The position numbers are program-made. A stretch of DNA of 36,201 nt, taken from the IMG/VR virus record IMGVR_UViG_2711768014_000012. One strand, written 5' to 3'. This DNA is from a virus (taxonomy: Duplodnaviria > Heunggongvirae > Uroviricota > Caudoviricetes). The stretch's first letter is position 1; the number at the start of each line of letters is the position of its first letter. Below are positions 32,501-35,500 of the stretch, one piece after another.

Positions 32501-35500
32501 GAAGTCGCTTCCGGTGTGATGAACACGAAAACCAAAGGTAAGGTCTCACTCAACCTGGAAATCGAACCATTTGATGAGAACCGTGTGAAAATCAAACACA
32601 AACTCTCATATGTTCGCCCGACTAACCGCGGGAAAATTTCCGAAGAAGACACCACCGAAACGCCGATGTATGTCAATCGCGGTGGTCGCCTGACTATTCT
32701 GCAGGAAGACCAGGGACAATTACTGACTCTTGCCGGTGAACCTGACGGAAAACTCCGCGCAGCAGGTCATTAATATCGTTCTTAATTAACCGATTATTTA
32801 TCTCATCACTGAATATCTTTATATAGTGAGGACTTATTATGTCTCAGAACTTAGACGCAACCGCAATTAATCAAATCCATGCCCTTATTTCTGCTCAGGG
32901 TGTTAATGAAATTATCAGTAAGATTGGTGCCGATGCTGTGGCATTGCCTGAGAATTTCCGCATTCATGATCTGGAAAAATTAAATTTAAATCGTTTCCGT
33001 TTCCGTGGTGCGCTTTCCACTGCCAGCATCGATGACTTTACTCGTTATTCTAAAGATCTTGCAGATGAAGGCACCCGCTGCTTTATCGATGCTGATAATA
33101 TGCGTGCCGTCAGTGTTCTTAACCTGGGTACTATTGATGAACCAGGTCACGCAGATAACACCGCCACTCTCAAACTGAAAAAGACAGCTCCGTTCTCTGC
33201 TCTGTTGTCTGTTAATGGCGAGCGTAACTCCCAGAAGTCACTGGCAGAATGGATTGAAGACTGGGCCGACTACCTTGTGGGCTTTGATGCTAATGGTGAC
33301 GCCATTCAGGCAACCAAAGCGGCTGCGGCGATCCGTAAAATCACAATTGAAGCGAACCAGACCGCTGATTTTGAAGATAATGACTTCAGCGGCAAACGCT
33401 CCCTGATGGAGTCTGTCGAAGCGAAGACCAAAGACATTATGCCAGTGGCATTTGAATTTAAATGCGTTCCGTTTGAAGGTCTGAAAGAACGTCCGTTTAA
33501 ATTACGCCTCAGCATTATCACTGGCGATCGTCCTGTACTGGTTCTGCGCATTATTCAGCTGGAAGCGGTACAGGAAGAAATGGCTAACGAATTTCGTGAT
33601 CTGCTTGTTGAGAAATTCAAAGACAGCAAAGTAGAAACCTTTATTGGTACTTTCACCGCCTGATTTCATTACTGCAAATGCCCCTGCGGGGGCATTTACG
33701 GAAGCGATAATTTTAACTATTGCCGCCCCTATAAAGAACCATTAAACAATAACGTGACGTAGCTATTGATAGTAAATGAAGCACTTGCAAAATAATTGCA
33801 TTGCGTATATATACACACATGTGTTGTATTACAGCGATAATGGTAAAGCAAATGATTAACTCTGAAGCAATTGAGCAACTAATGTGGCTATGGTCCTTAT
33901 TTGACATTAAATTCTTATCTATTCTTGCCGCTGCCTTCACTATATATTTTGGCGTGCAAAAAATATCAAAAAAGGTGACAGTGTCGTATTCAGCAAATGC
34001 AAGTAGAATATATGACATGCATATATCAACCATAATCCTGAATAATAAAAGAGATAATGCAATTGCTATATCTTCAATCAATATGGAGGTTGAAGGTAAA
34101 GGGATACTACAAGTTATTAAATTTGACTCCCCTCTTCTTTTAAAGAACTATGATTCTTTAAAAGTTGAACCACCAAAATTTAGCAGCCTTTACAATAATG
34201 ATGGCGTAGTTAAGTTAGATATTTCTGATAAGTTTCATTTTTATATAATCACGACATCTGGAGATGAAATTAAATGTATTTCTGAAAATAAATATGTAGC
34301 ACCAAACATGGAAAACAAAATAGCTACAGACATAAGAAAATTTAATGGCATTGTCTTAACAAACAGAATGTCTTATATTTTTTTCTATGCAAATGACAAC
34401 GGAGAGAAATACTGCATAATAGATGTTTCATTGTTCATAAATGGTGACAACCCATTTCATTTTAATTTTTTAAAAGAAGATGAATTAAGAGATTTTTCTA
34501 GCATCCTTATTAGTTACGGATATCACCAACAGTTTAAAAGTTATGCATTGTTTAAAATAGACAACCATCTTGCTCCTTCTTTGGTTTTAAATAAATCAAT
34601 GATAGAAAATAATATTATTGAAATGAATAAGTAACTCACCGGGTGCAGCCGGTTATGATGGAGAAATGATATGAATACCTTGTTTTTACTGATGGCTGAA
34701 TTCAATACCCCAAACATTGAACTCTCAGCAGTTAGTCAAAAATACTTTGGTATGAGTCCAGCCACAGCAGAAGCAAAAGCAAACGCTTGTAAGTTGCCTG
34801 TACCTACATATCGCATCGGTACATCACAAAAAGCAAAACGTTGCATCAATATTCAGGATCTTGCGGAATACATAGACAAAAGACGAGAAGAAGGACGTAT
34901 CGAGTGGGAACAGGTCAGAACAGGCAAACAGAAGGGCAAAGAACATCACTAAAGAAAAAACCCGCCTAAAGGCGGGTTTTCAAAAAGCACCAGCTATGAT
35001 CATGCTGCTTTGCGACGACGAAGCTTACCCTGCTGCTCTTTACCAGAGACAGTAGCGTGAGTGAACGCATTAGGAGCAGCCTTCATCAGAACTTCAACAG
35101 CAGCACCCATACCTGCGAATGCTTTCATTGTGTCGAACTTAACCTGTGGCTTGGTTGCTTTTTGATCTTCCATAGAAAACTCCAGAAGCTATACCGAAAC
35201 AATTCCTGTTGTTTACTCATCATCAATAGATGATACGCAATATTTATTTTTAAATTTAAGGTTCTTTGGCGTAACTTCATCAGATATATCAAAACCGTCC
35301 AGAATTCTATTGAATGTAGCTTCTGGCATATCATCATGAACGGAAATCTCACCCGATCGCTGCTTTCTAACCATGTTATCCACTCGCCAAATTATAGCTT
35401 CAGCGTAAACAACATAACTTGGATGCTTGATAAAGCGATGATCACCAGAATTCAAGACGCAAGACGGATCGTGGGGGACACCATCCTTGATACTAGAAAT

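Follow-up and report, generated by a model that had tools for sequence, protein, structure and literature searches.

The window analysed here is a stretch of 36,201 nucleotides (IMG/VR record IMGVR_UViG_2711768014_000012). Its prophage is an mEp460/SfV-like element of E. coli, integrated at dusA, with a repressor-controlled early-left operon. The promoter scan placed the probable PL on the + strand at 31763-31790 (TTGACA-16-CATAAT, 11/12 consensus positions). It overlaps an operator-like site, TGTACCTTTGGGATACA, that resembles two sites between cI and cro (30966-30982 and 31016-31032). Further along the operon lies yfdQ (DUF2303; 32839-33663, + strand), identified by annotation and by Pfam PF10065 (E = 8e-93). 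The next element on this strand is an AT-rich cassette of 925 bp (33714-34638). It is missing from related phages and carries a single gene (33852-34634). The excisionase gene xis, of the PrtN family, begins 36 nt after that gene (34671-34952, + strand; Pfam PF11112, E = 3e-23; PHROG 1300 'excisionase', E = 1e-39). In this lambdoid prophage of E. coli, the cassette separates the yfdQ module from that of xis, and the excisionase gene comes right after it.

The cassette has sharp borders. In megablast comparisons with 46-47 phage records, the match ends at window position 33712/33713 and restarts at 34639. Against mEp460, SKA5, SfIV and others, the borders fall at 33713/33714 and 34638/34639. 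The original prediction described the gene as far more AT-rich than its surroundings, and the windowed GC analysis agrees. The GC content of the 260-aa gene is 0.29, versus 0.517 for the rest of the window. For the cassette it is 0.28-0.33, with 400-nt windows as low as 0.28. These values support a compositionally foreign cassette in the early-left arm. The same bias accompanies the gene elsewhere, with a GC content below that of its flanks in 41/41 homologue loci tested.

In related phages, the interval between yfdQ and xis measures about 3.5 kb and contains an HD-phosphatase gene, ea genes and an exonuclease gene. Because other genes occupy this interval there, the cassette represents a replacement and not a pure insertion. 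The full cassette is present in 99 of 5426 complete E. coli genomes (~2%), with a patchy distribution. Part of the 1.1-kb query was matched in 2717 of the same 5426 genomes; in the records listed, the match covers mainly the first ~113 nt, which correspond to the 3' end of yfdQ and the hairpin behind it. In the list of the 20 E. coli genomes with the best match, identity over the full-length region is 99.8-100%, with one IS1 disruption (an insertion in the cassette gene, in one genome). Many database copies of the gene are partial. Carriers include clinical and animal E. coli and Shigella sonnei. The best explanation of these observations is a horizontally mobile, single-gene accessory unit that, between yfdQ and xis, took over from the usual block of ea and exonuclease genes.

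The gene starts at ATG 33852, which is the PGAP start of WP_047654657.1 (260 aa, 'hypothetical protein'). Homologues all open with M-[IL]-N at this point, and a strong Shine-Dalgarno sequence precedes the matching start of the Klebsiella homologue. The feature described before (33785-34634) ends where this + strand gene ends; the gene itself starts at 33852. The protein belongs to PHROG 14996 (function unknown, E = 2e-178). Searches of Pfam, NCBIfam, PADLOC and PDB sequences, made with the protein and with a profile of its 125-member family, gave nothing above threshold. The sole sub-threshold match was Ig_TMEM131L_3. None of the 5027 models of PADLOC-DB v2.0.0 matched WP_047654657.1, even at E <= 1, and neither this accession nor two sequence strings searched are present in the DefensePredictor supplements. 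The literature searched on the accession, on yfdQ-linked work and on exclusion genes adjoining xis has nothing on this gene. No enzymatic or pore-forming domain was recognised in the protein.

The AlphaFold (AF2) model of the 260-aa protein has a pLDDT of 94.3 and a pTM of 0.83. It shows a transmembrane helix at residues 19-38 (33906-33965), close to the hydropathy maximum (residues 13-35). Family-conserved F29, Y32, F33 and K37 lie on this helix. Residues 42-141 (33975-34274) form an Ig-like beta-sandwich domain, on the basis of the model and of structural similarity to proteins with Ig-like or beta-sandwich folds. It resembles adhesin, pilin and chaperone domains at the generic fold level only. 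The C-terminal alpha/beta domain (residues 156-260; 34317-34631) has no structural counterpart among the matches listed, and a Foldseek search of viral structures (BFVD) had no match at E <= 0.001. The original prediction of one N-terminal hydrophobic helix with a soluble part of no known motif holds (residues 19-38, followed by ~220 aa). So does that of a membrane-anchored protein whose family has no name, given the N-terminal helix and the lack of Pfam and NCBIfam matches. The structure prediction and structural search that it proposed gave a recognisable fold for the first soluble domain and no listed counterpart for the second.

Column conservation shows that K37, N65, P94, S111, C142 and G194 are near-invariant across the family. 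The Ig-like domain holds N65 with the conserved [KR]67 and D68 (an N-x-[KR]-D motif), P94, K98 and S111; C142 lies just beyond it. Between the two divergent E. coli alleles, the dN/dS value is 0.33-0.36. The gene encodes a real protein under purifying selection.

The residues K and R are more frequent after the helix than before it in 121 of 126 family members. The mean is 2.8 in the 15 residues that follow it, versus 1.0 before. This excess predicts an N-out/C-in orientation. By this charge rule, the protein would have a short acidic tail in the periplasm and both domains in the cytoplasm.

An exhaustive profile search recovered 221 cluster representatives (50% identity) with the same length and architecture. 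The family is unnamed but widespread. In contexts like that of the window, homologues in lambdoid prophages lie directly before xis-int (loci L028, L029 and L033). Those of Klebsiella and other prophages occupy the early-right region (L008-L011, L031, L032). In Citrobacter islands the gene is beside an integrase gene (L004-L007), and small Acinetobacter plasmids also carry homologues. Members were also found in environmental Acinetobacter, in Vibrio, and in metagenomes of soil and marine origin. A tblastn search of 50,697 deposited phage genomes found no homologue. At L034 and L035 the homologue is on the opposite strand to both of its neighbours, so it must have its own transcription there.

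Several neighbours are of defence type. At L052 and L053, the homologue has hsdS on one side and hsdR on the other, inside a type I restriction-modification (R-M) operon that also includes a HEPN/MNT pair. In a chromosomal island (L036) it is accompanied by HEPN_LA2681, DUF4062 and M78 peptidase genes. DUF4062 is again a neighbour at L040, and L034 has a DUF4145/HEPN-like gene. An HNH gene is directly upstream at L012 and L048, in the latter just below the Pfam cut-off. The toxin-antitoxin pairs MazEF, YafO, CbtA/CbeA and Panacea were found near members of the family. This association comes from the types of Pfam domain seen in the independent contexts inspected, about a dozen in number, and those neighbours that were run against PADLOC had no match. 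The presence of the family in accessory and defence-type neighbourhoods elsewhere is supported, and these neighbours suggest, without proving, a defence role.

We considered a conserved two-gene system and dropped it. The proteins encoded upstream in Citrobacter (477 aa) and Acinetobacter (427 aa) are unrelated, and the different neighbours in the E. coli, Klebsiella and L034 contexts also contradict such a system. The gene is independent of any one partner gene or element type.

The gene had been described as self-promoted, from a near-consensus sigma-70 promoter, TTGCAA-17-TATATA (33785-33813, + strand). Both hexamers are present (TTGCAA at 33785-33790, TATATA at 33808-33813). However, the agreement with the consensus is only 8/12 for this candidate, the conserved T at -7 is missing, and the scan criteria therefore excluded it. 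Chance gives such sites in this DNA (11 promoter-like sites in 5.2 kb vs 12.0 +/- 3.6 in shuffles), and self-promotion finds no backing in them. A site inside the gene (34393-34420) is better, with 10/12. In the Citrobacter cassette, the candidate -35 and the spacer can be aligned, and the -10 is interrupted. Promoter-like hexamers in AT-rich prophage cargo are no evidence of expression in the lysogen. DNA so rich in AT is typically silenced by H-NS in E. coli.

Behind yfdQ there is a GC-rich hairpin of 9 bp, AAATGCCCC-TGCG-GGGGCATTT (33676-33697, + strand), which had been reported one base off, at 33675-33696. Folding of 33664-33725 around it gives -23.4 kcal/mol (z = -4.5 vs shuffles). Phage homology continues through the hairpin to 33712, which assigns it to the conserved yfdQ module, and phages without the cassette keep it. 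The scan did not score it as a terminator because it has no U-tract. As a terminator of the early-left operon it was rejected as unproven, considering also that it is conserved where phage early genes run past it.

A short hairpin, ACCGG-GTGCAG-CCGGT (34638-34653, + strand), lies at the right border of the cassette, with the ribosome-binding site of xis just downstream. The motif precedes three different xis genes at L004, L028, L029 and L033. Energetically weak (z = -0.7) and without a U-tract, it does not qualify as a terminator. Neither the scan nor folding gave a terminator in the 36 nt from the stop codon (34634) to the start of xis (34671), where this 5-bp hairpin is the only one. Downstream of the cassette, a real terminator first appears after xis (34956-34981; -17.4 kcal/mol, z = -4.5), and it is strong and bidirectional. 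The only Rfam matches over 30900-36201 are sub-threshold and fall on it. With no terminator before xis, any constitutive transcript would run on into that gene, and one defining part of a moron is missing. The term moron, applied to the gene before, suits a foreign single gene of atypical composition and does not extend to a terminator of its own.

The cassette gene is on the sense strand of the early-left operon, together with yfdP, yfdQ and xis, at ~2 kb downstream of PL. In five independent contexts it is directly upstream of xis (the window, L004, L028, L029 and L033). Its orientation, and the lack of a terminator before xis, are as compatible with an early gene that is induced as with one expressed in the lysogen.

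Among known systems, SNIPE (PD-lambda-1) is a nuclease, bound to the membrane, which cleaves phage DNA in the course of injection, and it was found by a genetic screen in E. coli (PMC13190303). The likeness is the N-out/C-in single-pass layout, which is established by experiment for SNIPE (PMC13190303) and predicted for the window protein. However, SNIPE has a DUF4041 domain as well as a GIY-YIG nuclease domain, whereas the window protein and 125 family members have neither, with no PADLOC match to PD-lambda-1. The window protein is also about half the size, and its cytoplasmic part would consist of the Ig-like sandwich and the alpha/beta domain. Since it has no nuclease domain of the SNIPE type, any block would be non-nucleolytic or would use an unrecognised active site.

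Like the window protein, P22 SieA is a small inner-membrane protein of a prophage that comes from a stand-alone accessory gene. Unlike the cassette gene, sieA has its own annotated promoter and is located in the immI region. The accessory exclusion genes for SieB (lambda and P22) and RexAB (lambda) lie in or beside the lambdoid early-left region, and a location like theirs had been proposed for the cassette gene. It does not correspond in detail. The sieB gene is antisense to the PL operon, with its own mapped promoter, and rexAB lies between cI and PL and is co-transcribed with cI. In contrast, the cassette gene is sense-strand and distal, directly before xis. Comparisons by hhalign with SieA, SieB and RexA gave probabilities of 0.6%, 0.4% and 0.2%. 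Lactococcal Sie2009 and HK97 gp15 are other superinfection-exclusion membrane proteins of prophages. Genes of the Sie2009 type adjoin int in the lysogeny module, and the cassette gene similarly adjoins xis.

The morons of HK97 and HK022 are promoter-gene-terminator units between phage genes. The cassette shares with them a single gene of odd composition, between two genes that related phages also have. It differs in that it has no terminator of its own, its promoter is only a candidate, and it replaces a gene block instead of being purely inserted. The position of the cassette gene is that of lambda ea8.5 and P22 eaC, each coming last in the early-left operon, immediately before xis. Their products are soluble and have the phage's own composition, unlike that of the cassette gene, and a profile comparison with EaC gave no similarity.

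Considering the genomic contexts, we tentatively favour an anti-phage protein that is tethered to the membrane and represents a new family, an explanation that comes near to an even chance without reaching it. The 260-aa protein, if made in the lysogen, would act at the inner membrane to shield the cell or element that carries it from other phages. It might bind a component of the incoming genome-entry machinery and so block entry (superinfection exclusion). Alternatively, it might sense a phage product and then perturb the membrane (abortive infection). A bolder version is possible, although we regard it as doubtful. Here, the E. coli protein would be a member of an undescribed and widespread single-gene anti-phage family (221 clusters), whose helix tethers the Ig-like domain and the new alpha/beta domain on the cytoplasmic side. 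It would intercept the machinery of phage genome entry without a nuclease or trigger membrane failure, and a novel kind of site, for binding or catalysis, would be made up of N65, C142 and [KR]67-D68.

If the gene serves defence or exclusion, the known anti-phage repertoire gains a membrane-tethered module that is compact (260 aa) and new in structure. Its carriers would be ~2% of the complete E. coli genomes, and also Shigella sonnei, Citrobacter and Klebsiella, Acinetobacter plasmids and many metagenomes. Like SNIPE, it would mark the inner membrane, on its cytoplasmic face, as a site where cells intercept incoming phages, here without a recognisable nuclease.

The gene could instead be an ea-type gene of the PL operon, made only after induction or infection and acting on the host membrane for the benefit of the phage. 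In that case it might prevent secondary infection in the course of lytic growth (like T4 Imm and Sp), alter transport or division, or modulate the timing of excision together with xis. Several features of the operon agree with this. The gene has the same strand as yfdP, yfdQ and xis, and is ~2 kb from an 11/12 promoter with an overlapping operator-like site. The preceding hairpin has no U-tract, no terminator separates the gene from xis, and its candidate promoter (TTGCAA-17-TATATA) is sub-threshold. It also has the lambda ea8.5 / P22 eaC position, with xis directly downstream in five independent contexts. Nevertheless, homologues occur where there is no phage early operon (small plasmids, the type I R-M operon, chromosomal islands) or in the strand opposite to both neighbours (L034, L035), and a function in the phage cycle is not expected to travel to such sites. 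Related functional phages also do without the gene. We consider such a role unlikely; under it, the gene would count as one of the ordinary accessory genes in the ea region. In either case, the family merits a name and a Pfam entry.

Two further readings have lower probability than an anti-phage role. AT-rich prophage cargo that encodes a membrane protein is the classic pattern of a lysogenic-conversion gene, which could change the envelope, stress tolerance, colonisation or virulence with no relation to phages. The carriage by clinical and animal E. coli and Shigella sonnei, and the generic likeness of the Ig-like domain to adhesins, pilins and chaperones, point in the same direction. However, the soluble domains are predicted to be cytoplasmic and not surface-exposed, and the family extends beyond pathogens, to environmental Acinetobacter, to Vibrio and to metagenomes from soil and marine sources. 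Its neighbours are nucleases, HEPN, toxin-antitoxin and R-M genes, not virulence loci. Conversion is therefore quite unlikely, and the virulence factor suggested by the original prediction has no support. It is improbable that the gene is a selfish, addiction-type membrane toxin, or a remnant without current function here (for example, silenced by H-NS). The toxin-antitoxin pairs that adjoin it at several loci, the very high AT content, the IS1 insertion in one genome and the many partial database copies could be read in this manner. On the other hand, no partner (antitoxin) gene is conserved across contexts, and purifying selection acts on the gene (dN/dS ~0.35). The best-matching 20 E. coli genomes listed have it at full length and 99.8-100% identical, with a single IS1 disruption, and the full-length architecture is kept across the 221 clusters.

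The window is a lambdoid prophage from E. coli, of mEp460/SfV type. The same DNA adjoins zur in one complete E. coli genome, where the xis end lies against the chromosome and the integrase at the opposite end. In SKA5, a related prophage in phage form, the gene order is xis, a small ORF, a 139-aa gene, a Panacea gene, a dusA fragment, and int. To map the cassette borders, we compared the region by megablast with 50,697 phage records and with 5,426 complete genomes of E. coli. Phage homology covers yfdQ (32839-33663) and its hairpin, ends at 33712/33713, and restarts at 34639, just 5' of xis (34671-34952). 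The full cassette occurs in 99 of the 5,426 genomes. Part of the 1.1-kb query is matched in 2,717 genomes; in the listed records, the common part is the first ~113 nt, which hold the yfdQ 3' end and the hairpin. Genes for an HD-phosphatase, EaE, Ea22-like, and other small proteins lie downstream of yfdQ in mEp460, 720R4, PhiR29_1, and Kati, and upstream of xis in SKA5. An exonuclease gene belongs to the early-left block of mEp460, 720R4, and SKA5, and the yfdQ-to-xis block of mEp460 spans ~3.5 kb. By sequence comparison, one 925-bp AT-rich unit replaces the yfdQ-xis block of related phages in the window prophage.

Set beside NC_019716.1 (26009-29401), window 33714-34638 has none of the HD-phosphatase, ea, and exonuclease genes of mEp460-type phages. 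The early-left arm retains only yfdP, yfdQ, and xis, plus the cassette gene. One cassette-carrying genome, that of strain E89 (NZ_CP121157.1), has an IS1X2 element inside the 5' third of the cassette gene, at the equivalent of window ~34040-34050; annotation gives the rest as a 183-aa hypothetical protein.

The original prediction described an AT-rich gene here, and this holds. The ORF is on the plus strand, ends at 34634, and has ATG codons at 33840 and 33852. PGAP starts it at 33852 (WP_047654657.1, 260 aa, "hypothetical protein"). All homologues have an M-[IL]-N start at the equivalent position, with a strong Shine-Dalgarno sequence in one. The gene has a GC content of 0.29, whereas the window outside it has 0.517; in 400-nt windows, GC is 0.28-0.33 over the gene and 0.42-0.52 around it. 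The enterobacterial homologues examined are also single units (GC 0.29-0.35, flanks 0.44-0.55), and more distant members lie 5-14 points under their flanks.

The cassette protein has no match in Pfam, NCBIfam, or PADLOC, and nothing connects it by homology to the exclusion proteins SieA, SieB, and RexA, to EaC, to the membrane-bound anti-phage nuclease SNIPE, or to any PADLOC family. PHROG 14996 (unknown function) matches it end to end. A word-indexed search of 5.8 billion proteins gave 11 clusters, including E. coli/Shigella, Citrobacter, and Klebsiella. When 1.84 billion representatives were searched exhaustively with a profile, 221 proteins passed E <= 0.001; almost every one is 235-275 aa long and matches over its full length. 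Conservation reaches 90% or more at K37, N65, P94, S111, C142, and G194 (125 members), the family motif is N65-x-[KR]67-D68, and F29, Y32, and F33 are conserved within the membrane helix. Two divergent E. coli alleles show a dN/dS of 0.33-0.36.

AlphaFold2 with a deep alignment (pLDDT 94.3, pTM 0.83) predicts a helix (residues 4-16), the single transmembrane helix that had been anticipated (19-38), a beta-sandwich (42-141), a low-confidence linker, and an alpha/beta domain (156-260). Among the structural hits listed, none matched this C-terminal domain. The N-tail is acidic family-wide, K/R residues number 2.8 in the 15 residues after the helix versus 1.0 before (a pattern in 121/126 members), and the soluble part has no regular number of cysteines across the family. 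The N-tail is therefore predicted to be periplasmic and both domains cytoplasmic. SNIPE has the same layout, demonstrated with PhoA/LacZ fusions (PMC13190303). The gene is uncharacterised and belongs to a sizeable family that has no name; the two-domain structure of its product is predicted with confidence.

Downstream of the repressor gene, just after a terminator-like hairpin, lies an 11/12 promoter, TTGACA-16-CATAAT (31763-31790). It is overlapped by TGTACCTTTGGGATACA, similar to two sites in the cI/cro intergenic region, and is most likely PL. The cassette gene is therefore on the sense strand, ~2 kb into a repressor-controlled early-left operon and directly before xis. A rexAB/sieB-like location had been proposed. 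However, lambda rexAB and lambda/P22 sieB differ in place and orientation, and the positional analogues are lambda ea8.5 and P22 eaC.

A TGTACC-N5-GG(T/A)ACA-like site occurs three times, twice between the divergent repressor and cro-like genes (30966-30982, 31016-31032) and once in the spacer of the PL candidate (31770-31786). For this immunity type, they probably represent the OR and OL operators. The ~600 nt past the probable PL (31797-32410) have no RefSeq-annotated gene and are GC-richer (0.52-0.53). They contain an inverted repeat with 25-nt arms (32274-32298/32338-32362) just upstream of yfdP. Rfam gave no match for this region, which could hold nutL, a leader element, or a structured RNA.

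The promoter said to be near-consensus exists as a sequence, TTGCAA at 33785 and TATATA at 33808 with a 17-nt spacer. However, it matches the consensus at 8/12 positions, lacks the T at -7, and is unlisted by the consensus scan. The scan gave 11 promoter-like sites against 12.0 +/- 3.6 in shuffled sequence, 5 of the 11 being inside the cassette. In a Citrobacter orthologue, the -35 and spacer align with the window and the -10 is interrupted; upstream regions of more distant cassettes could not be aligned. The hairpin reported downstream of yfdQ was confirmed at 33676-33697 and is stable, with a folding energy of -23.4 kcal/mol (z = -4.5) for 33664-33725. It has no U-tract and is part of the conserved yfdQ module. 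Between the stop codon and xis are 36 nt with a 5-bp hairpin lacking a U-tract, and the first terminator follows xis (34956-34981). The near-consensus promoter and the moron description are thus borne out only in part: the composition is foreign and the unit single, the promoter is a weak candidate, and no terminator lies between the gene and xis. A constitutive promoter would read into xis, which argues that any promoter here is weak, silenced, or conditional.

The proposed promoter is outscored by one of the cassette's five sites, which lies inside the gene (34393-34420, plus strand, ATGACA-16-CATAAT, 10/12) and is of a sort that horizontally acquired, AT-rich DNA typically contains. The motif ACCGG-GTGCAG-CCGGT (34638-34653) marks the right border, directly before the xis ribosome-binding site. 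It recurs with variants upstream of xis in L004 (Citrobacter) and in the prophage loci L028, L029, and L033, before three different excisionase genes (93, 68, and 78-82 aa). It is weak as an RNA hairpin (z = -0.7) and may be a module-junction or regulatory element.

Homologues occupy many positions. Other lambdoid prophages (L028, L029, L033) have one immediately 5' of xis-int. The Citrobacter copies (L004-L007) also precede xis-int, at the edge of integrative-element arrays and adjoined by P4-like or CP4-like modules with CbtA/CbeA. In Klebsiella and other prophages, homologues follow replication and MT-A70 genes in the early-right region (L008-L011, L031, L032). In L034 and L035, the homologue runs opposite to the genes on either side, which encode an antirepressor and a DUF4145/HEPN-like protein; in Buttiauxella (L012), it comes after an HNH gene. 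On small Acinetobacter plasmids, the neighbours are MazEF plus an HNH-like gene (L048) or a gene of the ParA family (AAA ATPase; L049). Another homologue shares an island with HEPN_LA2681, DUF4062, M78 peptidase, and MvaT (L036), and the one in L040 lies close to a further DUF4062 gene. A YafO toxin is the neighbour in L039, and in L051 the homologue sits with an AHH toxin at the tail-fibre end of a P2-like prophage. In L052 and L053, it separates hsdS from hsdR within a type I R-M operon in which a HEPN/MNT pair and RhuM genes are also present. These contexts share no conserved partner gene, and deposited phage isolates contain no homologue.

We tentatively favour an anti-phage role. An autonomous single gene in many mobile-element cargo slots, patchily spread and with defence-type neighbours (R-M, HEPN, toxin-antitoxin, and nuclease genes), is the pattern of anti-phage genes. 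The pattern is difficult to square with a function bound to the early programme of a single phage. Local features (the sense strand, the lack of a terminator, and a weak promoter) favour the main rival, a gene induced with the early-left operon, which we consider rather unlikely. A conversion or fitness role is less probable still, and a selfish or silenced element is improbable. Under the anti-phage reading, the conserved membrane helix and predicted cytoplasm-facing domains suggest action at the inner membrane. The protein could block phage genome entry there or, alternatively, be a membrane-perturbing abortive-infection effector. The earlier guess of exclusion or abortive infection seems reasonable. 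The gene is no surprise in kind. It is a fair candidate for experiments because the family is sizeable and unnamed, the two-domain prediction is confident, and none of the structural hits listed matched the C-terminal domain.

In the Pseudomonas-like island (L036, 8846-9214), an MvaT-type (H-NS-like) xenogeneic silencer gene directly follows the distant homologue. In all four Citrobacter loci (6015-7448), a 477-aa protein without Pfam or PADLOC match precedes the homologue, and two (L005, L006) have a small Caudo_TAP-like ORF. The block of 477-aa gene, homologue, xis, and int is constant. The DNA to its left varies, with Y4jQ/response-regulator genes, a P4-like primase module, or a CP4-like CbtA/CbeA module.

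The prophage end (35213-36201, minus strand) carries two genes with a 4-nt overlap. One encodes a 190-aa Panacea/SocA-like antitoxin-domain protein (35629-36201, Pfam E = 2e-18). The 139-aa product of the downstream gene belongs to PHROG 19071 (unknown function) and has no Pfam or PADLOC match. The pair is conserved beside attP in SKA5 and is a probable toxin-antitoxin pair. A 57-aa ORF between the xis terminator and the 139-aa gene (35000-35173, minus strand) carries the annotation "hypothetical protein" in RefSeq as well as in phages mEp460 and SKA5.
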